Shown here: positions 17,089-52,283 of the stretch, piece after piece
Position numbering within the stretch: the first letter of the stretch is position 1
Layout: each line of letters starts with the position of its first letter
Virus record (IMG/VR): IMGVR_UViG_3300028048_000079
Span: 1-64,000 of that record
DNA length: 64,000 bases
Reading direction: 5' to 3' (one strand)
DNA from: a virus
Taxonomy: Duplodnaviria > Caudoviricetes
Notes under the pieces: generated by a model
Databases searched by the model: none
Seen by the model: only the letters and a program-made list of their open reading frames with translations
What the model was told of the DNA's origin: nothing
Program-made: the position numbers and the translations under genes

Positions 17089-17508
17089 ATGAGAAAAAAA
17101 GATTATAAATTAAAACACAAAATCAAATACTGTGTAGTTAACTGTCACAATAAGTTTGACCGGTATTTTGTTAAGGAAAAATGGGGTGATTCACAGTTCG
17201 TACCATTCAGTAAAACTTCCTACGATGACCCATATGATGAAACTGACTACGACTATCTAAGTCAGAAGAAAATAAAGAAATATTTAAAAAGATGGCTTTT
17301 AAAACGCATTAATCATACTGTTGAAAAAGTATATTCCGAATATGTAAAACTTGGTTGGCGTAATGAGTTTGAAAAGAAAATCATTTGGAATAAAATGGTA
17401 AGAAACGGAATACATGAAACAACAAAATACTATTGGAAATATTATGAAGGATTATACGTAGATTCCAATAATATTTTAAGATATAAAAAGAAAGGACTAC
17501 CGAAATAA
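17089..17508 (+). CDS. Basic hypothetical protein
   Basis: 139-aa Lys-rich ORF; GLYVD..ILR end. Confidence 0.6.
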   Translation: MRKKDYKLKHKIKYCVVNCHNKFDRYFVKEKWGDSQFVPFSKTSYDDPYDETDYDYLSQKKIKKYLKRWLLKRINHTVEKVYSEYVKLGWRNEFEKKIIWNKMVRNGIHETTKYYWKYYEGLYVDSNNILRYKKKGLPK

Positions 17509-17520
17509 AGTAGTCCTTTT
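17491..17520. terminator. Bidirectional terminator
   Basis: AAAGGACTAC/GTAGTCCTTT stem between convergent genes. Confidence 0.75.
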
Positions 17521-27777: not shown

Positions 27778-29835
27778 TTATTTGTTTAATTTTTCCAATT
27801 GCTTAACCATATTGTCCAAATCTTCATTAATAAGGAAATTCTTTTGGTAAATTGGAACATTTTCGTTTATACGTGACTTATTCTGATAGTATTCTTTTCT
27901 CTTTTTTGCAAGTTTATTGGTATAGTTCTTGCTTTTTCTAATAATATCCTTCTGTATTTCCTTCTGTTCATTAATTGTGTTTTTCAAAAGGTTTCTCATA
28001 AAGGTTTCACCCATTGTGGAACTTTCACCTTCACTGCCAGAGGCTTCTTCAGAACCTCCTGCTTCTTCTCCACCAATCTCATTGGCAGCAGCATTCATAT
28101 CCATCTCACCTTCTGAACCGGTTTCTTCACCTTCTTCATCACCGAAATCAAAGTCTTCACTTTCGACAGCACTTCCTCCGAAACCACCGCCGCCACCTCC
28201 GGGCATTCCACCTTCTTCACCTTCCTCTCCCGGAGCTGCTTCTGAATACTCAGCACCGGCTTCGCCATAAATGTTATCAACCTTGTCAAATATCTTAGTC
28301 CTCTTGATAATTTGTGAAGTCTTCTCCAATTCAGCAGCCAATGCCTTTTCAAGCCTGATTTCTTGTAGGTTTTCTTCAATTTCTTTGTCTGACCAACCCA
28401 TGATTTCCTTACAAGCCCTTGTCCAAGACATAAGCTGAATACCATTACCTGCATCAGAAATAGCATCTTTAGCAGTTGTAACTTTCTTAGCCATATTCTC
28501 TAATTCAAGCATTTCGGCCTGAGAAGATGGATTATTCATTGTAAGATTGAAATTGGTCAGTTCATCCTCAAACCCTAACAAATAAAGATGAATAATACAT
28601 ATCTTGTTCAATTCCATTAACAATGCCTGCTGTATTCTGTTTACAGTTCTCATAAACCTTACATCAAGCAAAGAAAGGTTTTTACCATCACCGGTTGTTT
28701 CTTCAAAATTCAAATATGATTTTGGTATTCTTAATGCTGTACAAACCTTATTCTGTACGAATTTAATGTCATCCATTGCTGTCATATTCTGAGCACCCTG
28801 AAGTGTCTCAATCGGGCTGCTTTCATTGGAATCACGTACAGGCACAAAGAAGTCTTCAGATACATTCAAGATATTTTTCTTTAAATCCAATTGGCCGGTC
28901 ATTGGGTCAATAATTGGTGTTCTCTTGAAATTATTTGCAATATCTTCCACAAATGCAGGGACATCTTCATCACTTATTGTACCAACATTAACCTTGAATA
29001 CACGTCTTTCGATAGAACGTTCAAGACGATATATAAGCATCATATCTTCCATCATTGATAACATTCTCCAATGCCTTCTTGCCTTATTAAGATATGATAC
29101 ACCATATGGCAATAGTAATGAATCATAAAGCAATCTGAAATGTGCAATCTGCCAATTTCGATATGGTATAAATTCATTTTGCCCTACCCATACAAATTTA
29201 GTTGCATCAGTTTGGTTTAAATCAATGTTATTCAAACTCTGATAAGCACCTACATATGGGTTTTCCATACCATTTTCATAACGTTCAACTTCATAAACAG
29301 GCAATTGCCTCCAATTTACAACACCATTTTCCTCATTAATGTCAAGTAACATGAATGTATTACCATACTTACACATACTACGGCATATCATAGGTAACAT
29401 GATGTTAATTTGAAGTCTATTTACAAGCAAATCCTGTAATATGGATTTTACACGTTCTGATTTTGAAGTGACATTTACCAAAAAACCATTCTTCGGAATA
29501 TAGTTTGTTTCCTCTGACAGTATATCAAGTGCAGCACCAATCTCAGGGAAACAGTCCATTAAGTCTGCATCCCTATACATCATCTTAACCTCATTCAATC
29601 CGGCAAGTGACTTGTTGGTTAATTCGTAATTAGCCTTTTTCCATTGCCTTGCAAGAAGATGCTGTTGTTTTAATTGTTTAAGCTTACTGTCATATTCTTC
29701 TTTATTATTTGTTCTGAAAAGAATATCAGAACCGTCAATTCCATATGAATTTACTTTCTTGACAGCCGTCTGTATATCGCTACTGTTTGACAATATATTT
29801 GTCAACTTTTGAAATATCGTTGGTTTTGTTGGCAT
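27778..29835 (-). CDS. Portal protein (T4 gp20-like)
   Basis: PEI..ALDI, SYL.KARR.W..L.MMEDMMLIYRL.R..ERRVFKVNVG, EDFF.P.R, IETL.G. Confidence 0.95.
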   Translation of the reverse strand: MPTKPTIFQKLTNILSNSSDIQTAVKKVNSYGIDGSDILFRTNNKEEYDSKLKQLKQQHLLARQWKKANYELTNKSLAGLNEVKMMYRDADLMDCFPEIGAALDILSEETNYIPKNGFLVNVTSKSERVKSILQDLLVNRLQINIMLPMICRSMCKYGNTFMLLDINEENGVVNWRQLPVYEVERYENGMENPYVGAYQSLNNIDLNQTDATKFVWVGQNEFIPYRNWQIAHFRLLYDSLLLPYGVSYLNKARRHWRMLSMMEDMMLIYRLERSIERRVFKVNVGTISDEDVPAFVEDIANNFKRTPIIDPMTGQLDLKKNILNVSEDFFVPVRDSNESSPIETLQGAQNMTAMDDIKFVQNKVCTALRIPKSYLNFEETTGDGKNLSLLDVRFMRTVNRIQQALLMELNKICIIHLYLLGFEDELTNFNLTMNNPSSQAEMLELENMAKKVTTAKDAISDAGNGIQLMSWTRACKEIMGWSDKEIEENLQEIRLEKALAAELEKTSQIIKRTKIFDKVDNIYGEAGAEYSEAAPGEEGEEGGMPGGGGGGFGGSAVESEDFDFGDEEGEETGSEGEMDMNAAANEIGGEEAGGSEEASGSEGESSTMGETFMRNLLKNTINEQKEIQKDIIRKSKNYTNKLAKKRKEYYQNKSRINENVPIYQKNFLINEDLDNMVKQLEKLNK

Positions 29836-29926
29836 TGTTTACAATCCTATTTAATATAAATATAGACAAGAAAGTATTGTTTTTCAAGGCACTACAAAAT
29901 AACAAAGCAGACAAATTATGTCTGCT

Positions 29927-31804
29927 CTATTTCTTTTTCCGAAACCCACCAAGTAATAACATTGCCTCAAATCTTGCTTTTTCTTTCTTCTCCATTTGTA
30001 CACTGCTGTAAAATGGCATTTTCTTAGGCGATGACATTACAACTTTATCTTCAAGTTTACTACTTCTGTAATCTGAATTGTTACCGTTATTGACATACCA
30101 TGATTTAACAATCTGTGTGTCCTTTTGTTTAACCTTTTCATTACGTAACATATAGAATACAGCAATGAACAACCCCATAGCAAGACATGTAAGTGAATCA
30201 TCATGGCTTCCATCTTGGTGGTCCGGTCTTCCGTTCTTAAATACCCAAGTCTCCAATTCGCTAATAACACGTGTACTTCTAACCCTGAATGAATTGTTTT
30301 TAAGCATTTCAACGAAGTTCGAAATCATCTGAATACGTAAACCATTACTTCTGAAACCAGGCAATGCTTCGCCAGCCTTTTTATTGAACTTTGAAGCGGC
30401 TACTTTCAATGTATAGTTCTTCAATGCATTTTCATCATAATACAAGTTAGGATACCCAAGATTCATTAATGTTAGAATAACAGCATCACCATATCCACCG
30501 ATGGCTTCAACAACTACTAATGCATCATTATAGATTCGTCCATACCTATCCACCAAACCGGCAATTTCCTCACCGTTTATTTTTCCATTATATTCAAGTA
30601 CTTGGTCAAAGAATGGTGCTCCGTTTTCATCGATAGCATCCACATCAATCACTTCAATTGCAGTTCTATCTTCACCACTACCGGATGAAGGGTCTACTGA
30701 TACGATGTAACGGTGTCCCGGAATTGGGTCTTGCCATATCCATGTTTCTGCGATAAGTTGGTCTTTTAACGGCCAATCCGGGGTTATTTGGATAACATTT
30801 TCATTCTGATGCATTTCAATGACTTCCGGTGGTACAACGTTATCCGAAGAACCGAGGAACGAAACAAGCAACTCTTGTGCAATCATCTGTTCATCATTAT
30901 TGAATGATTTACACATATCCTCGAACCAAGGTGAAGTTGGTGTCCATCCATTCTTTTCAAGATTCTTCCACCTCTCTTCATTATATTCAATATTACCTTT
31001 CTTATCTATTACAGGGTCTTCATCCCATAGAATCTCTCCGGTTTTTTCATCTTTCTTATACCATTTAAGATATCGGTTATAACGTGGGTCTTGATAGAAC
31101 TTAAATTCAACAATTCTGAAATTATTCTCGCCCCTTAATGCTTGCGAATAGGTTTTATAATATAGTGGGTCTTTACCGTTAGGAGTTGAAATCATCAGGC
31201 ATTTTGGGTTTTCGACAGCAGACTGAGATGCTCTGGCACTCGTATATGCAGCAACAGAATCAGCCAAGAACGCAGCCTCGTCAAGACAAAGTATGGTAGT
31301 ACTACTGACACCACGTGCAGAGTGAGGACCGGATGCACGTGCGTAAATTTTACAGCCGTTAAAAAGCTCAATGTAGTTTTTATTACGTTTTACGTAAATT
31401 GACTTAAGATTTTTGGGATTATCCGGGTCAGGTGAATAATAATCCCCACCCCACATCCATCTTGGAACCTGGTCGAGAAAATTAACAATTTTATTTGTCA
31501 ATTCAATTGCTTGGTCAAGTTTGTTTGCTATACACAGTATGGTTTCCGGTGACTTCTTATCGGCAAATGCACATTGCCCACAGATGTATGCAGCAGAAAC
31601 AGTAGAAATACCTGACTGACGGCATTTTACGGTTACAACTTCATTATCCTCTGCACACGCCCTTAAATATTCCTTTTGTCTTGGGAATAATAAGAACGGA
31701 ACTTCACTACGTTCCATAGCATTGAATGTGTAAAGATAATTTTCGATAAAGTAAATCCTCGATTTATCTTGATAGCATTTTATATATTCACTTTGTTTAC
31801 TCAT
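29927..31804 (-). CDS. Terminase large subunit (gp17-like)
   Basis: Q-motif FPRQ, Walker A KCRQSGIST, Walker B LCLDEAAF, ISTPNG, nuclease VDPSSG..D and HDD. Confidence 0.95.
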   Translation of the reverse strand: MSKQSEYIKCYQDKSRIYFIENYLYTFNAMERSEVPFLLFPRQKEYLRACAEDNEVVTVKCRQSGISTVSAAYICGQCAFADKKSPETILCIANKLDQAIELTNKIVNFLDQVPRWMWGGDYYSPDPDNPKNLKSIYVKRNKNYIELFNGCKIYARASGPHSARGVSSTTILCLDEAAFLADSVAAYTSARASQSAVENPKCLMISTPNGKDPLYYKTYSQALRGENNFRIVEFKFYQDPRYNRYLKWYKKDEKTGEILWDEDPVIDKKGNIEYNEERWKNLEKNGWTPTSPWFEDMCKSFNNDEQMIAQELLVSFLGSSDNVVPPEVIEMHQNENVIQITPDWPLKDQLIAETWIWQDPIPGHRYIVSVDPSSGSGEDRTAIEVIDVDAIDENGAPFFDQVLEYNGKINGEEIAGLVDRYGRIYNDALVVVEAIGGYGDAVILTLMNLGYPNLYYDENALKNYTLKVAASKFNKKAGEALPGFRSNGLRIQMISNFVEMLKNNSFRVRSTRVISELETWVFKNGRPDHQDGSHDDSLTCLAMGLFIAVFYMLRNEKVKQKDTQIVKSWYVNNGNNSDYRSSKLEDKVVMSSPKKMPFYSSVQMEKKEKARFEAMLLLGGFRKKK

Positions 31805-34088: not shown

Positions 34089-34165
34089 GATTGCACAATT
34101 ATATAAATAAATATGGAGTAATTATTATTAAAAATGCCCCCATATAATATTGGAGGCATTATCTT

Positions 34166-38607: not shown

Positions 38608-38640
38608 TTTGTTATAAGAAAAATAATTAGTACCTTTGCA
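38608..38640 (+). promoter_or_regulatory. Bacteroidota sigma-A-type promoter
   Basis: TTTG-N19-TACCTTTG upstream of clpX. Confidence 0.75.
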
Positions 38641-38668: not shown

Positions 38669-39826
38669 ATGGCAAAAAAAACAACAAATGAAGAGGTAAC
38701 TCAAGAAGAGATTAAGGAAATAAAGGCACAAATGCGTGACATTATGAATAAGGTCACGCCAAAATACCTTTATGATTATCTTAATCAGTATGTAATTGGC
38801 CAAGAAGAAGCCAAGAAGTATATATCCGTTGCTGTTTATAACCATTATAAACGTTTTATGGATAACATCTATGGTTATACACAATATATTGAGGATAATC
38901 CATATCAAGATGTTGAAATTGAAAAGACTAATTGTATTGTACTTGGAAATTCCGGAAGTGGGAAAACTTATATGCTAAGACTTCTCGCAAAGCATCTGAA
39001 TATACCGTTTTATATACAGGATTCCTGTAGCCTCTCAAGTGCTGGATATGTTGGTGATGATGTCGAGAATGCGGTTCTTGGTGCATTGCGAAGCTGCAAC
39101 TTCAATGTGCAAGCCACACAGCATGCAATTATTGTCTTCGATGAGTTTGATAAACTTTCAAGAAAGAGCGAAAATCCGTCAATAACACGTGATGTCGGTG
39201 GTGAAGGTGTTCAGCAATCACTTTTGAAACTTGTTGAAGGTACAATTGTCAATGTACCGCCCAATGGTGGACGTAAGCATCCGGAACAGGAATGCATTCC
39301 TGTAGATACAAGAAATATTCTTTTCTTCGGCATTGGTGCATTTGATGGTTTGGAAAAGATTATTGAGAAACGCAAGAACAAAAAAACAATTGGCTTTAAT
39401 TCAATTGCAAAGGACAATGAAGTTGAAGAAGACTTGCTTTCAGATGTTACTTCGGATGATTTAAAGAAATATGGCTTGATTCCTGAAATTATAGGCCGTT
39501 TTCCGTTGATTACGCATGTTAAGCCTTTAACAGAAGAACAACTTTATCAGATACTTGTTGAGCCTAAAAATTCAATTATTAAACAGTTTCAGAAACTGTT
39601 TTGGATTGATAATGTTGAACTAACATTTGATGATGATGCTTTGCATATTGTTGCTAAGGAAGCATATGAAATGAAAACCGGTGCTAGAAGCTTGCGTGGT
39701 GTTCTTGATAAATTGCTTGCTGATATTATGTTTGACTACGGTGGTTACAATGAGGAAAAGGTGAAACTTAACATCACAGCTGATATGGTTTCTGCTTACC
39801 AGTCAAAAGTTAAACAAGCTGCTTAA
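38669..39826 (+). CDS. clpX: ClpX-like AAA+ ATPase (no N-terminal Zn domain)
   Basis: YVIGQE.AK..ISVAVYNHYKR, GNSGSGKT, AGYVGDDVE, DEFDK, RDVGGEGVQQ.LLK, GGRKHP, IGF, GAR.LR. Confidence 0.93.
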   Translation: MAKKTTNEEVTQEEIKEIKAQMRDIMNKVTPKYLYDYLNQYVIGQEEAKKYISVAVYNHYKRFMDNIYGYTQYIEDNPYQDVEIEKTNCIVLGNSGSGKTYMLRLLAKHLNIPFYIQDSCSLSSAGYVGDDVENAVLGALRSCNFNVQATQHAIIVFDEFDKLSRKSENPSITRDVGGEGVQQSLLKLVEGTIVNVPPNGGRKHPEQECIPVDTRNILFFGIGAFDGLEKIIEKRKNKKTIGFNSIAKDNEVEEDLLSDVTSDDLKKYGLIPEIIGRFPLITHVKPLTEEQLYQILVEPKNSIIKQFQKLFWIDNVELTFDDDALHIVAKEAYEMKTGARSLRGVLDKLLADIMFDYGGYNEEKVKLNITADMVSAYQSKVKQAA

Positions 39827-40384: not shown

Positions 40385-41317
40385 ATGTCTCAACTTATAG
40401 GTTTTTGTGGCAGAAAACGTGCCGGCAAGGGGGTTTTATCTGAAATTGTCAAAGAGAAATATGATGGTGTAATTGTAACAGCGGCAAATTATTTGAAATA
40501 TATTTGTTGTGAATTACTTGGGTATACTCTTGAAGAGCTAAATGAACGTAAAGATAATGGATATGTTTTCTTTCTACACCCAAGTTATCAGTGGTACGAT
40601 ACCATACATAAGTGGACGGGAATTGAGATAAAATATATTAAAAAGGAAATTGCTGGAATTAAATTCAACAATGTAAGACAGGTATTGCAAGTCATTGGAA
40701 CTGATTGCATCCGTCGTTATAACCCATCTTGGCATGTTGAATGTATGGTTAAAGATATAAAGAAATATCTTAATGAAGGTAAAACAGTTGTTGTTGATGA
40801 TGTCAGATTTCCTAATGAACGTAAAGCCATTGAAGACCTTGGTGGTGAGTGCTATTACATAGTAAGACCATTAACTGACAATGTTTCAAACCACATTTCC
40901 GAAACTTCACTTACTTGGGATATGTTTGCTGATGACCATGTGATTATTAATAACAATACGCTTGATAATTTCAAAAAACACTTTGAAGAGCATCTAAGTA
41001 TTAATGGAAATTCAGAAAATGCTCACCCAATATTCTTAAATGAAATGCCGTATTTCCAGAAGATGAACAATCTCTTTGGAAAAGAGAAAACCAAATTAGT
41101 TGAAAAGATTTTGGCACAAAATAAAGATTACGATTTGTTTAAAGACAAGGGTGTTTTTAGATTTAAGCCATCCAAATCAAGTGAATTTGCTGAATTTATA
41201 AAGGAACTTTATGGCATTAAAATTGTAGACAACAAAAGAATGAAACATATTTATTACAAGATATATAATCCTTTAATAATTGAAAATTTAAAACGGCATA
41301 TCAATGAAGACAAATGA
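40385..41317 (+). CDS. Deoxynucleoside monophosphate kinase (T4 gp1-like)
   Basis: IGFCGRKRAGKG P-loop, RQVLQVIGTD..R, DDVRFPNE, HISE. Confidence 0.9.
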   Translation: MSQLIGFCGRKRAGKGVLSEIVKEKYDGVIVTAANYLKYICCELLGYTLEELNERKDNGYVFFLHPSYQWYDTIHKWTGIEIKYIKKEIAGIKFNNVRQVLQVIGTDCIRRYNPSWHVECMVKDIKKYLNEGKTVVVDDVRFPNERKAIEDLGGECYYIVRPLTDNVSNHISETSLTWDMFADDHVIINNNTLDNFKKHFEEHLSINGNSENAHPIFLNEMPYFQKMNNLFGKEKTKLVEKILAQNKDYDLFKDKGVFRFKPSKSSEFAEFIKELYGIKIVDNKRMKHIYYKIYNPLIIENLKRHINEDK

Positions 41318-41561
41318 TGTTTCAAAAGATGTTTGGAAATCTTTCCGAAAAGCCAACCGTGAGTTACAGTTTGAACGCAACGGCGGAGGACAGTTTGTAG
41401 CCACAGATAGGACGTGGAAAAACAAAAAGAAGTATGATAGAAAAAGGGACAGAAGAATAAATTTCGACTGTCCCTCTTTATTTTATCGTAATTTTAGATT
41501 ATGCATCTTTAACAACTGTATAAACAGTGTAATTAACACCGTCTTCTGTAACAACAGATGA
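41304..41561 (+). CDS. Small basic protein, candidate ArfA/BrfA-like ribosome-rescue factor
   Basis: RKANRE...KNKKKYDRK; internal terminator precedes the stop codon. Confidence 0.45.
   Translation: MKTNDVSKDVWKSFRKANRELQFERNGGGQFVATDRTWKNKKKYDRKRDRRINFDCPSLFYRNFRLCIFNNCINSVINTVFCNNR
41441..41485. terminator. Bidirectional intrinsic terminator inside the 41304 ORF
   Basis: GGGACAG (41446-52)/CTGTCCC (41468-74) with T-rich tracts on both strands. Confidence 0.7.
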
Positions 41562-44180
41562 AATCACGTGGCAACCTTCTGCTACATAACTAGTGCCTTC
41601 TCCTTCAGGATTGTTACTTGGGTCAAAGTCATAGAATTTTGGTCCGCTTGTTGTACTTGCACTACTTACAATAATATTGGCAGTACCTGCTTGGAAATTA
41701 GCATCTTTACAGTTAAGCAAGTATCTCTTGTCCTCACTACTGTTTCTGAATGTACCACCTGTGATGTTGATAGTACCTGTCTCACAGTAGATTAACTCAG
41801 GTGCATCACCATTACCTATGAAATTACCGCTTTGAATGTTGGCAGTTGCACTTGTGCTTGCTACCCAAAGGATTTTACCATTGCCATTGTTTACAATCTT
41901 GCTGTTTGTACCAGAACCCTTGATAGTGACAGTTTGTGAACCTCTTGCAAGAATACTTGCGAAATCACCGGTTGTATCAACTTCCAATGTGTGTTCATTA
42001 AGATTCAATGTTACATCATTCTTTGCCATCATACCAGGGCCAAATCTTCCTGTTTCAACGTCCTCGCTAAGTTTAACAGTACCGTTGTTATTCATAAGGG
42101 TGTTAAATGATTTCCCTTCACCAGGTAAATCATATGTTACTGCACCACCCATATCACCGACAATCTGTTTTAATGAATAAACTTCACTTTTCAATGATGC
42201 AATAGTAGCATCCTTCTCAGCAAGTTCATTGCCAATCTGTGTGTTAAGGTCTGATATGTTACCCTTTACGGCAATCTCATTGTATGGGTCAAGTGGAGTG
42301 CTTGCACCTACACCATAGTATGCGCCGTTTGGATTAACGTTAATACGTGTACCCTCGTTAGTGGCTTTGTTCTTTGAATAAATCTGAACACAGATACCAT
42401 TAGCATCACCATCATTTGTACCTACATAAGAGATTACATTTGCTGTGCTGTTATAGTATTGTGAGCCGCCGCCATCACTCTCATTAAAGATAAGTGCATA
42501 AGAACCGTTCTGCCCGGTAATTTTGCCCACAACAAATTTATTGTTGGTTTCAGCCTTTGTATAGTAGTTCTCAGGATTGAAAATGTCTGTCAACGGGATT
42601 GTAATATCTTCTTTGCCTGAATCAGAATTGAATGTGATAACAAGATTTCCATTCTCAATTTTCACCTCTGATACCATACCGTCCTTAATAAAGTCTGTTG
42701 CGTCAATTGAAGCCAAAACAGTGTCGCCATTCTTCAACTCAATAGCCTTGGTCTGTGAATTGTAGTCACCACTTGTAACATAAGATGACAAGTCCTGATG
42801 TTCTTTCAAGAAACCTTGTTCATTCACCCATGCCTCAGTTGCATAGCCTTCAAGACTTTGATGCTCAGTAAGATAATTTGCATCGTTCTCTAACTCAGAA
42901 ACCTTAGTTGGAATATCACTTTCCTTTGCCAATCCATCAACAGCAAGTGCAATATCGCCCTTAACTGCAAGTTCCTCTTCAGGCATCATAGTAGCAGAGC
43001 CGCCAACGCCGTAGAAAATACCATTAGGATTAACGTTCAAACGAGAACCTACATTATTGCTTACGTTCTTAGAATAAATCTGTGCACAAACGCCATCAGG
43101 CCCATCAGCATTAACGCCGACAAAAGTCTTAATACCGGCAATCTTGTTTTCAAACAATGCGCCACCACCATCTGACTCGTTCCACAACATTGCAACACTA
43201 TTATCGGCATTAGTGTACTTAGTCTGGAACCATCCATGTTCTACATCGTTTGGTTTAGACCAAATCTTCGAGAATACAGCATTTTTAACTGCATTATCGC
43301 CATCTTCTCTTTCAGCCTTAGTAGCAAACAATGTATCTGTTTCAGCCTTAGTATAATAGTTGGCAGGATTGAAAATTTCAGTCAAAGGGATTGAAATTGG
43401 TTCTTTACCAGAATCTGTATTGAATGTAATAACCAAATTACCATTCTCAACAACAACATTACTAACCATACCATCCTTGATAAAAGGAGTTGCATCAATT
43501 GTTGCAAGCACAGTATCATCGTGTTTGAACTCCATTTCCTTTGAAGTAGAATTGTAATCAACACCGTTGATATATGCTGAAAGGTCTTGGTGCTCAGTCA
43601 GATAACCTGCATCGTTATTGAAATCTGATACATTTTCCGGTTTGTTACTTAAGTCGTTATAACTTCCACTTGTTGCAACAGCAGCCAAATCAGCTGAATT
43701 AGCCTTTAACTCAAGTTCCTCCTTTGTTGCATAGTCTTCCAAAGACTGATGTTCGGTTAAGAATTTGGCATCAGCCTCATCTTTGGTATATACATCTGCC
43801 GACTTTGCATAAACTGAAAGAGCATCTTCTGTAACGAAATTAGCATCATTGTCCAACTCAGAAACCTTTGTAGGAACAGTAGGGATTTCGTCTTTTGTGG
43901 CGAATGTTGCCTTATCTTCCTCGTATGTTTCAGTATCAAGTTTCTTTGCTATTTCTGCGGCCAATTTTGCTTCGATTGATTCACTATTTTCTGCAATTTC
44001 ACCAAGTGTGTCCAATGCAGCAGGAGCACCATTGACAAGTTTATCTACAGCAGTCTGAATTGCTGTATTCATTTCTTTTTCGTCTACACCTCCAAAGTCA
44101 GGTGGGTTTATCATACCAGTACCACTATCCCCTGAATAGTCGTAAGCCCAAGGATTAATGTAATCTTTCTTATTATCCAT
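41499..44180 (-). CDS. Fibre/adhesin-like virion protein with LTEHQ repeats, a duplicated module and C-terminal beta-helix-like region
   Basis: AP.ALDTL.EIA, PTKVSELxND..LTEHQ repeats, I.GG.F repeats; late motif 44203-44209. Confidence 0.7.
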   Translation of the reverse strand: MDNKKDYINPWAYDYSGDSGTGMINPPDFGGVDEKEMNTAIQTAVDKLVNGAPAALDTLGEIAENSESIEAKLAAEIAKKLDTETYEEDKATFATKDEIPTVPTKVSELDNDANFVTEDALSVYAKSADVYTKDEADAKFLTEHQSLEDYATKEELELKANSADLAAVATSGSYNDLSNKPENVSDFNNDAGYLTEHQDLSAYINGVDYNSTSKEMEFKHDDTVLATIDATPFIKDGMVSNVVVENGNLVITFNTDSGKEPISIPLTEIFNPANYYTKAETDTLFATKAEREDGDNAVKNAVFSKIWSKPNDVEHGWFQTKYTNADNSVAMLWNESDGGGALFENKIAGIKTFVGVNADGPDGVCAQIYSKNVSNNVGSRLNVNPNGIFYGVGGSATMMPEEELAVKGDIALAVDGLAKESDIPTKVSELENDANYLTEHQSLEGYATEAWVNEQGFLKEHQDLSSYVTSGDYNSQTKAIELKNGDTVLASIDATDFIKDGMVSEVKIENGNLVITFNSDSGKEDITIPLTDIFNPENYYTKAETNNKFVVGKITGQNGSYALIFNESDGGGSQYYNSTANVISYVGTNDGDANGICVQIYSKNKATNEGTRINVNPNGAYYGVGASTPLDPYNEIAVKGNISDLNTQIGNELAEKDATIASLKSEVYSLKQIVGDMGGAVTYDLPGEGKSFNTLMNNNGTVKLSEDVETGRFGPGMMAKNDVTLNLNEHTLEVDTTGDFASILARGSQTVTIKGSGTNSKIVNNGNGKILWVASTSATANIQSGNFIGNGDAPELIYCETGTINITGGTFRNSSEDKRYLLNCKDANFQAGTANIIVSSASTTSGPKFYDFDPSNNPEGEGTSYVAEGCHVISSVVTEDGVNYTVYTVVKDA

Positions 44181-44666: not shown

Positions 44667-44829
44667 TTTCTTACTATTTTTGTTAATAACTATTGCAAAA
44701 GTACTACAAAAAATGATATTTACAAGCCCAAAAGTATGATTTAGGGTTTTCCTCTTTAAACTTTAGGAATTTCCCTAAAACAATAGGGAAAAGCAAAAAT
44801 GGCTTCCTTGGTTGGAAGCCTTTTCAATT

Positions 44830-50454: not shown

Positions 50455-52265
50455 TGCCAAAAAAGAAAACAATAGATTTCGGCTTTACGCCATCACCATA
50501 TCAAGAAAAGATTTTCGACTTCATACAGTATGGAGTTGGAAATGCTGTTATATCAGCAGCAGCTGGTGCAGCCAAAACCACTACGGCTGTTTCTGCAATG
50601 AAACTAATCCCAAAATCCAAGAAGTGCCTTTTCATTGCTTTTAATAAAAGTATTGTAGAAGAACTTAATAGAAAACTTGAAGGCTATGATAATTGCACAG
50701 TAAAAACAATTCACAGTTTAGGATATCTTATAGTTAGAAGAAATCTAGGAAGTAATATTGATATTGATGAGTACAAATACCGCACATATCTCAAAAGCAA
50801 TATTACAGAACTGACCTCTATTGATAATGGTATATTCATGACACATCAGATGATAGAGGAATATATTGAGAGTATCACTAAACTGATTGATTATTCAAGG
50901 TTTAACCTTGCACAGTCAGTTAAGGAAATAGAACAAGTGGCTATTAGATATGATATACCTGTTTCCTTTGATGAATGTGAAGTTGCGTTGAAATGTTTGA
51001 AATGGGGCAAGGAAAACTATCAGACAATAGATTATACTGATATGGTATGGCTTCCTTATGAACTATCACTTAAACCATCAGGATTACAATTTGATTGGAT
51101 ATTCTTTGATGAAGCACAGGATGCAAGCCAAATGGCAGTTGAATTATTCTTAAGATGTTTCAAAAGAGGCACAAGGTTCTTCTGCGTAGGTGATAAAAAC
51201 CAAAGTATTAATTATTTCTGCGGAAGTTCCCCAGAAGCCTTTGATTATATGTGCAATTACCCGAATACAACAATTTTTGAATTGCCGGTTTCATATAGAT
51301 GTGCTAAGAATATTACTCTATATGCTAATAATATAGTACCTGGAATGCAATATAGAGAAAATGCTCCGGATGGCTTTGTTGTTGAAAATTGTCACATTAA
51401 CGAAATAAAAGACGGTGATATGGTACTTGCACGTTCAAAAGCACCATTGCTTAAACTATATGTTAAACTTTTACGACGTGGTGTTAATTGTTATATTAAA
51501 GGCCAAGACATTGGTGCCAATCTAATAGATTTACTTGAAAAGATTGAATACGATGACCTCAATGCAGATTTAAATAAGGACGGTGTATTTGTAAGGCTTT
51601 ATGACAGAATGTTCAATGAGCGTAACAAACTTATGGAAAAACGTGGACTTGATATGAATGATGCTACATTGTCAATGAATATCATGGAAATGTATGACAC
51701 TATAAATGCATTAATTATCCTTGCAGAACAATATAAGACCAAGGATGAACTCATTGAGCATATAAGAAGAATTTTCAAAGATGATGCCAAAGGTGTATGC
51801 CTTTCAACAGTTCATAAAGCCAAAGGTCTTGAAGCAGAAAACGTCTATATACTTTGTCATTCAATGATGCCATCAAGACTTGCACATCATGATTGGGAGA
51901 AACAGCAAGAAAGAAATCTGCAATATGTTGCCTATACAAGGCCTAAAAATAAATTAGGATTTGTTTCAGAAAAGGAAATACCACCAACCGGCAGTTCAGC
52001 AGAGCCTTCTGAAATATTAACAGAATTAACTTATATCGAAAATAAAGTTTGTAGGGTTTTAGGCAAAGAACCAATGAAACCTATGAATAATGCTGAAATG
52101 GCAAAATTCAATTTGAGGAATGCAACAGAAATTGGTGATTTACATGAAAAGGATAATTGTATAGATGTTTCTAAAAATACATTTGAAGATAATGCATCAT
52201 TCGAAACAACAGATACTGCACTTCTTGATGAGCTAATGTCATTTATAACAAAAGAAAAAAGTTGA
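50454..52265 (+). CDS. UvrD/Rep-family SF1 helicase
   Basis: AAAGAAKTT Walker A variant, AFNK, TIHS, DEAQD, VGD..QSI, SYRC, STVHKAKGLE, YVA.TR. Confidence 0.9.
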   Translation: MPKKKTIDFGFTPSPYQEKIFDFIQYGVGNAVISAAAGAAKTTTAVSAMKLIPKSKKCLFIAFNKSIVEELNRKLEGYDNCTVKTIHSLGYLIVRRNLGSNIDIDEYKYRTYLKSNITELTSIDNGIFMTHQMIEEYIESITKLIDYSRFNLAQSVKEIEQVAIRYDIPVSFDECEVALKCLKWGKENYQTIDYTDMVWLPYELSLKPSGLQFDWIFFDEAQDASQMAVELFLRCFKRGTRFFCVGDKNQSINYFCGSSPEAFDYMCNYPNTTIFELPVSYRCAKNITLYANNIVPGMQYRENAPDGFVVENCHINEIKDGDMVLARSKAPLLKLYVKLLRRGVNCYIKGQDIGANLIDLLEKIEYDDLNADLNKDGVFVRLYDRMFNERNKLMEKRGLDMNDATLSMNIMEMYDTINALIILAEQYKTKDELIEHIRRIFKDDAKGVCLSTVHKAKGLEAENVYILCHSMMPSRLAHHDWEKQQERNLQYVAYTRPKNKLGFVSEKEIPPTGSSAEPSEILTELTYIENKVCRVLGKEPMKPMNNAEMAKFNLRNATEIGDLHEKDNCIDVSKNTFEDNASFETTDTALLDELMSFITKEKS

Positions 52266-52283
52266 GATTAATTTCTCAACTTT
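52257..52283. terminator. Bidirectional terminator
   Basis: AAAAGTTGAGA/TCTCAACTTTT. Confidence 0.7.

Follow-up and report, generated by a model that had tools for sequence, protein, structure and literature searches.

Why would a virus place a transcription terminator inside the reading frame of one of its own genes? The question is raised by a stretch of 64,000 nucleotides (nt) of phage DNA, here called the window, which comprises positions 1 to 64,000 of the IMG/VR record IMGVR_UViG_3300028048_000079 (Duplodnaviria; Caudoviricetes). In it, a gene for a small basic protein (41304-41561, plus strand) contains a hairpin followed by a T-rich tract, both located ahead of its stop codon. A preliminary description of this DNA, made from the letters alone, had proposed that the gene encodes an ArfA- or BrfA-like factor of ribosome rescue, that its message would lack a stop codon and that it might shield translation from RNase or tRNase defences of the host. 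We report here that the gene belongs to a protein family without a name, that the terminator within the frame is a conserved design in this family and that the constraint on the protein is lost after the hairpin. The reading that we prefer, to which we assign a probability of roughly 45%, is that a last-cistron peptide is made from a non-stop mRNA, is controlled by transfer-messenger RNA (tmRNA) and rescues ribosomes as ArfA and BrfA do. The argument depends on the following features of the window.

41304-41561, plus strand: small basic protein gene, 85 codons plus TGA, starting at the first ATG after an in-frame stop; apparent last gene of its operon
41304-41456, plus strand: conserved core, residues 1-51 (from alignments A1 and A4, the AlphaFold2 (AF2) model and synonymous changes)
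41418-41456, plus strand: basic C-terminal motif KNKKKYDRKRDRR, residues 39-51 (from alignments)
41434-41445, minus strand: tract that is A-rich on the plus strand, including the A-run 41441-41445; for the tail-fibre-like gene on the minus strand it provides the T-tract behind the hairpin
41445-41475, both strands: terminator hairpin with a G+C-rich stem of 8 base pairs (bp), 41445-41452 with 41468-41475 (from folding and conservation)
41477-41486, plus strand: T-rich tract, 8 T in 10 nt, 3' of the hairpin
41476-41561, plus strand: non-conserved remainder of the open reading frame (ORF)

The hairpin, which has an additional small inner stem of 3 bp, spans codons 48-58 of the 85 and lies 84 nt ahead of the in-frame TGA (41559-41561), with no earlier in-frame stop. 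The preliminary description, which had placed a terminator inside the frame of a small basic gene about 85 nt before its stop, was therefore accurate on this point. Folding gave -23.2 kcal/mol for the plus strand (z -6.0) and -19.8 kcal/mol for the minus strand (z -5.6), and on neither strand was any of 200 shuffled sequences as good. The 5' arm of the stem is at the same time coding sequence for the conserved residues K-R-D-R. A consensus terminator scanner missed the element only because its formal loop is longer than 8 nt. By analogy with brfA (PMC6881298), the plus-strand transcript is expected to end at the T-rich tract, which would leave a message without a stop codon and a peptide of about 59-60 residues, and the remainder of the ORF would then probably be part of the gene and not of the mRNA. 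Over its last 63 nt (41499-41561) the ORF runs into the 3' end of a convergent tail-fibre-like gene (41499-44180, minus strand), as had also been described beforehand, and the stop codon of this gene is 23 nt away from the shared hairpin. The loop of the hairpin contains a TAA (41458-41460), which is out of frame. A frameshift or sequencing error that would bring this codon into frame was considered and rejected, since homologues keep the frame open and there is no slippery heptamer; moreover, only about half of the loci have a +1-frame stop in their loop.

How unusual is this element in its own genome? A control scan of the 64-kb window found at least 13 other compact sites with a hairpin and a T-tract, all of them intergenic and several bidirectional between convergent genes, and the site at 41445-41475 is the sole strong compact one that falls close to the 3' end of an ORF on its own strand. 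Between genes, at 17492-17518, 34133-34160, 44801-44820 and 52258-52283, there are compact bidirectional terminator hairpins of the AAGG...CCTT type, and the stop codon of the ORF at 17089-17508 sits in the loop of the first of these. Between two minus-strand genes, a doubtful ORF of 74 amino acids (29787-30011, plus strand) fills the gap and contains a further bidirectional hairpin (29905-29927), more probably an intergenic terminator than another in-frame case.

The preliminary description had suggested looking for in-frame terminators in homologues, and most of them indeed have one. Eighteen distinct loci of the family, those with available DNA, were examined for the hairpin, the T-tract and the first stop, and a significant hairpin (z -2.2 to -6.4) together with a T-rich tract is present in 16 of them. 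In these 16 loci the distance from the first base of an invariant Tyr codon to the stem is 10-19 nt, the first in-frame stop always lies 3' of the stem at a distance of 6-150 nt, stops come much earlier in the other two frames, and the order of motif, stem, T-tract and stop is invariable. The stems of four loci (L004, L005, L008 and L013) occupy the same position with sequences unrelated to the stem of the window, and in the closer set compensatory changes are seen at five of the nine consensus pairs. Moreover, two loci (L002 and L009) keep the hairpin although their next gene is co-directional. Because of these two loci, and because the order of the elements never varies, it is likely that the overlap of frame and terminator is itself maintained. 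The same two loci weaken a scenario that had been named in advance as a refutation, in which the hairpin serves the minus-strand gene only.

A corresponding change is visible in the protein. Among 198 representatives, conservation is high through seven residues past the Tyr and then collapses, and the drop coincides with the start of the hairpin. The C-terminal extensions that follow are from 6 to 82 residues long, with a small peak of Leu and Phe where the U-tract would be translated, a Phe dipeptide being found there in 86% of the representatives. When loci are compared codon by codon, many differences in the core are synonymous, and in the tail 11-14 of 14 codons change the amino acid. Since both the conservation and the codon pattern shift at this point, selection appears to act on the peptide up to the basic motif and from there on the RNA hairpin and U-tract. 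From this comparison of sequences, it is very probable that the non-stop design is real and selected.

What kind of protein is constrained in this way? The predicted non-stop product of 60 residues has 17 Lys and Arg against 8 Asp and Glu. The core consists of a lysine-rich N-terminus, a helix, an E-R-N-G-G turn region and the basic motif K-N-K-K-K-Y-D-R-K-R-D, in which Tyr44 and, two positions later, Arg46 are invariant; the AF2 model places the helix at residues 6-25, followed by an extended region, with a mean predicted local distance difference test score of 80.5. The window protein had no match in Pfam (E-value up to 1), NCBIfam (E-value up to 10) or PHROGs, and a Foldseek search of its model against PDB gave none either. 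It has 74 close relatives, and a profile search of 1.84 billion representatives recovered 455 proteins, as representatives at 50% identity, at E-values up to 1e-3, 104 of them at E-values up to 1e-10; the source databases name the members of the family nothing beyond "hypothetical protein". Relatives at the DNA level lie on viral contigs of 58,916-359,943 bp, and a few on contigs binned into metagenome-assembled genomes, among which L006 and L007 carry the same phage synteny. Among GenBank phages, no tblastn match with the core was obtained.

The best Pfam neighbour of the family is DUF7230 (PF23876), which has no known function and remains below threshold: 5 of 150 members match it, with a best E-value of 4.5e-4 and all below the cut-off of 27 bits, as is the match of L018 (E-value 0.0024), a member of a second phage family treated below. 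DUF7230 did not match the window protein, and among 301 Bacteroidota genomes sampled no protein matched DUF7230 above the cut-off. In ESM features, DUF7230 is also the nearest named cluster (0.87), followed by a cluster containing ArfA (0.85); both values are below the level of evidence and serve as leads only.

Is the family, then, related to the rescue factors already described? Homology to ArfA, BrfA or SmpB was considered and rejected, the searches of Pfam, NCBIfam and PHROGs, the profile search of PDB and hhalign all being negative or non-significant. Neither the window protein nor any of 150 family members matches the ArfA family PF03889, and hhalign of the family alignment A1 against an ArfA alignment (A3) gave a P of 0.29. 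The A1 profile, run against all PDB chain sequences at E-values up to 10, found no rescue-factor chain and a single, chance-level match to an endopeptidase. Thus, of the proposed likeness to ArfA and BrfA, the conserved terminator-in-frame design stands and the membership in either family does not. A relation to ArfB or to class-I release factors, which the N-G-G-G-Q of the window protein might recall through the GGQ motif, was also rejected because the Gln is not conserved across the family, relatives having NGGRW, NGGHW, NDGKW, HIGF or SPGW instead; the RF-1 domain is absent from the family.

In Bacillus subtilis, brfA (YqkK) has a typical rho-independent terminator in its coding region, a design that was shown experimentally: of the 71 codons of the gene, only about 62 reach the mRNA, and the last 9 do not. 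The BrfA protein receives the tmRNA tag and builds up only upon failure of trans-translation; it combines N-terminal helical elements with a C-terminal region whose positive charge lets it probe the mRNA channel when this is empty (PMC6881298). The family described here shares with BrfA the terminator inside the ORF, at the level of sequence, and a predicted N-terminal helix followed by a basic tail in the AF2 model. It differs from BrfA in having no sequence similarity to it and in being encoded by phages, whereas BrfA is encoded on the Bacillus chromosome.

For arfA, a truncated non-stop mRNA is likewise part of the design (PMC6299226). In E. coli, we found a strong hairpin within the arfA ORF ahead of the stop, and the 3' end of the gene overlaps the convergent mscL. 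The family therefore resembles ArfA (YhdL, of beta- and gammaproteobacteria) in the hairpin within the ORF and the convergent overlap, and also in the pattern of the tail and the mature size of about 55-60 residues; it differs in having a helix and an E-R-N-G-G segment before the tail, which are absent from ArfA, and in lacking the glycines of GKGS. The mRNA of arfA is truncated mainly by RNase III cleavage, whereas the element of the family looks like a plain intrinsic terminator.

With regard to the tail, E. coli ArfA carries KNKKGKGSYMRK, and KNKKKYDRK of the window protein shares with its KGKGSYMRK the pattern K-x-K-x-x-Y-x-R-K in a short, lysine-rich match. The ArfA motif, KGKGS-Y-x-RK, lies in the mRNA channel, and its Gly and Ser residues are absent from the window protein. 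Compared by eye and at the level of motifs, KNKKKYDRK is closer to the SmpB tail, KGKK-x-H/Y-DKR, than to ArfA, and in a Bacteroidia SmpB this tail reads KGKKSYDKR. The tail of SmpB (PF01668) parallels the family motif position by position, while the SmpB fold is absent from the family; hhalign against SmpB picks exactly the tail motif at a non-significant level (E-value 0.013, probability 3%). In E. coli, the KGKK stretch, His136 and the DKR stretch of SmpB contact the decoding centre, at G530 and along the 16S backbone, and SmpB depends on them for tagging and function (PMC4151336).

A third rescue factor, ArfT of Francisella tularensis, was identified without homology-based annotation. The protein is basic, very small and rich in lysine in a stretch at its C-terminus, and its gene has an ordinary stop and no control through a non-stop mRNA (PMC6299226). 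It has no sequence relation to the family, and its gene design is like only that of a minority of members with short hydrophilic ends.

A second small phage family, A2 (47-65 amino acids, on small viral contigs), shares the KNKKKYDRKRDK tail, and its reading frames end at ordinary stop codons; its members are L017:2858-3004 (minus strand), L018, L021, L022, L028 and L029. In the segment before the tail, 11 of 21 residues are identical to E. coli ArfA (hhalign E-value 1.4e-3, probability 18%). Judging from these alignments, A2 may be a closer relative of ArfA without the non-stop design, and it hints at a bridge to ArfA; the link is biased because A2 was selected by the motif.

How would a gene of this design work in an infected cell? 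From the arrangement of its elements we infer that transcripts of the operon would mostly end at about 41480-41486, without a stop codon, that ribosomes on the last cistron would stall at this stop-less 3' end, and that host tmRNA-SmpB would tag the product of about 60 residues for degradation. Untagged peptide would build up only with trans-translation saturated or disabled, as by the many broken mRNAs that result from infection or from host defences. Its Lys- and Arg-rich tail, with the invariant Tyr-x-Arg arranged as in the tails of SmpB and ArfA, would then enter the empty mRNA channel and the decoding centre of non-stop ribosomes, where the peptide would most likely recruit a host class-I release factor and so free the ribosome, as ArfA and BrfA do. 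We consider the chances about even that the peptide acts on non-stop ribosomes; that it does so specifically by release-factor-dependent rescue is a more tentative proposal, somewhat short of even odds. On the combined analysis, the gene is a strong candidate for a viral factor that acts on stalled ribosomes, and is best read as a phage-borne analogue of ArfA and BrfA from an unrelated, unnamed family.

The genomic setting bears on how such a peptide would be expressed. The window is part of a record of 124,868 bp, which has a CheckV completeness of 32% and is therefore a fragment of a jumbo phage, and the host of this phage is probably a low-G+C member of the Bacteroidales. The neighbouring features are the following.

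38631-38638, plus strand: Bacteroidota-type -7 promoter motif TAnnTTTG, 38 nt 5' of the ClpX-like gene
38669-39826, plus strand: ClpX-like AAA+ ATPase (Pfam AAA_2 and ClpB_D2-small), first gene of a block syntenic in at least six phage loci
40008-40015, plus strand: second TAnnTTTG motif, 18 nt 5' of the ORF of 115 amino acids
40026-40373, plus strand: conserved ORF of 115 amino acids in the same operon (from synteny)
40385-41317, plus strand: deoxynucleoside monophosphate (dNMP) kinase gene directly 5' of the small gene (Pfam PF21448, E-value 4e-19; phrog_139; synteny)
41499-44180, minus strand: convergent tail-fibre-like gene, 893 amino acids (PHROG tail fibre and tail protein matches, E-value 1.6e-6)

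The two TAnnTTTG motifs agree with a Bacteroidales host and suggest that the operon is transcribed by the host RNA polymerase. No such motif lies directly 5' of the small gene, which therefore looks like the final cistron of a plus-strand operon; the start of this gene overlaps the end of the dNMP kinase gene by 14 nt. The order of ClpX-like ATPase, ORF of 115 amino acids, dNMP kinase and small gene is the same in at least six related loci, and Lak megaphages resemble the window at the ClpX-like gene only. In bacteria, ClpX is the unfoldase that handles tmRNA-tagged proteins. No zinc-finger N-domain was matched by Pfam in the ClpX-like ATPase, and the linkage between this gene and the small gene may or may not be meaningful. 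The convergent protein of 893 amino acids has a long internal duplication, with two copies of about 300 residues that have motifs in common, such as a segment ending in ITFN-DSGKE, and NYYTKAET.

No gene for ClpP, for a release factor or for SmpB, the last searched for in this record only, was found in the 125-kb record of the window. Five related large phage records, of which one is complete, also yielded no release factor, and a tmRNA gene above the Rfam threshold was found neither in these five nor in the record of the window. The only matches to the tmRNA model are stretches of 74-78 nt that score 24-26 bits against a cut-off of 47 bits; those in two related jumbo-phage records (L051, G306:C1:306125-306202; L052, G304:C1:276278-276351) are probably tRNA genes rather than tmRNA. 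As no release factor and no tmRNA above threshold were found in the records searched, the phage would have to rely on factors of the host.

Several observations weigh against a tmRNA-controlled rescue factor and must be taken into account. The two loci that lack the hairpin (L014 and L015) are the most divergent members, lie on contigs of higher G+C content and apparently have ordinary stops, and about 8% of the short representatives have only a short hydrophilic end beyond the motif, probably closed by a normal stop as well. The loci with DNA are not fully independent, because they largely represent one syntenic phage clade. In 14 of 19 loci the small gene is followed by a convergent one; the hairpin, which has tracts on both sides, can certainly serve both strands, and its conservation may partly reflect that role. 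Furthermore, the module is also found inside larger multi-domain proteins of 179-761 amino acids (P0328, P0335, P0349, P0355, P0365, P0366, P0370, P0374 and P0386; with the variant N-G-P-G-W), which have conserved unknown domains on both sides of it and in one case a DnaD-like replication domain; a free C-terminal tail is impossible in these forms because the module is internal. A scan of viral contigs with P0349 returned short-form loci only. Neither sequence nor profile comparison gives the family a significant match to ArfA, BrfA or SmpB, and the resemblances of its motif to ArfA and SmpB are short, rich in Lys and Arg, and were found post hoc. Finally, a ribosome following close behind the RNA polymerase could mask the 5' arm of the hairpin and suppress termination.

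What else could the peptide be? The alternative that survives best retains the non-stop design as a gate on tmRNA capacity, and makes the peptide a small basic regulator that binds nucleic acid or the ribosome, is made only under an overload of trans-translation and is not a rescue factor. It accounts for the lack of homology to any rescue factor and for an operon that holds nucleotide-metabolism and ClpX-like genes and not translation genes, and the occurrence of the module within multi-domain proteins, including the DnaD-like one, suggests a general binding module. However, the invariant residues lie in a tail of the SmpB/ArfA pattern, and all characterised proteins of this gene design, ArfA and BrfA, are rescue factors (PMC6881298, PMC6299226). 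A regulator of this kind seems to us rather unlikely.

The peptide might instead mimic the SmpB tail, fill the vacant decoding centre and mRNA channel of stalled ribosomes and compete there with tmRNA-SmpB, as a phage inhibitor or modulator of trans-translation that stabilises itself once it escapes tagging. The motif fits SmpB position by position better than it fits ArfA (PMC4151336), and the non-stop design would give such an inhibitor positive feedback; but the hhalign match to SmpB given above is non-significant, and a block of rescue without release would deplete the ribosomes that the phage needs. We regard an inhibitor as improbable.

The possibility that the overlap is an incidental result of compaction, in which convergent units share a bidirectional terminator and the protein works at full length or truncated without any sensing, has likewise a small probability. 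It draws on the prevalence of convergent neighbours already mentioned, on the A-tract that serves the minus strand, which arises from the preferred AGA and AAA codons of the conserved R-K-R, and on the tight packing that the stop codon in the terminator loop at 17492-17518 reveals in the window. However, none of the hairpin-bearing loci has a stop codon in frame ahead of the hairpin, or inside the hairpin or the T-tract, although stops are frequent in the other two frames; moreover, the arrangement persists through complete replacement of the stem sequence and next to co-directional neighbours. Last, an attenuation-like device, in which ribosomes on the 5' arm permit read-through antisense to the late tail-fibre gene so that the early operon times late expression, would suit a coding 5' arm and a convergent late structural gene 23 nt past the hairpin, but it is very improbable, as a leader-type device has no need of strong family-wide conservation of amino acids and the downstream genes vary between loci.

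A search of the literature found no paper describing a phage-encoded ArfA- or BrfA-like factor. To our knowledge, back-up rescue factors made from non-stop mRNAs are known in two bacterial lineages only, ArfA and BrfA, which have independent origins. The regulatory design is thus already known from arfA and brfA, and what is new here is an unrelated, unnamed protein family carried by viruses. It is possible, although doubtful, that this family of several hundred jumbo-phage proteins provides the first virus-encoded alternative rescue factor and, after ArfA, BrfA and ArfT, the fourth independent one that depends on a release factor: a copy of the decoding-centre motif of the SmpB tail, made from a self-terminating mRNA without a stop codon, that would appear only when tmRNA is saturated.

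If ribosome rescue by this peptide is true, the factor would appear only when the tmRNA of the host is saturated, during infection or during an RNA-targeting defence, and ribosome rescue would be a resource that phages manage in the course of infection. It would also mean that the Bacteroidales and their jumbo phages have a tmRNA-linked rescue or sensing system, and that a terminator in frame behind a conserved basic tail could be used as a simple sequence signature for finding more such factors. Should the peptide have some other function, the conservation of the non-stop design would still make it a clear example of a virus that employs the trans-translation of its host as a sensor.

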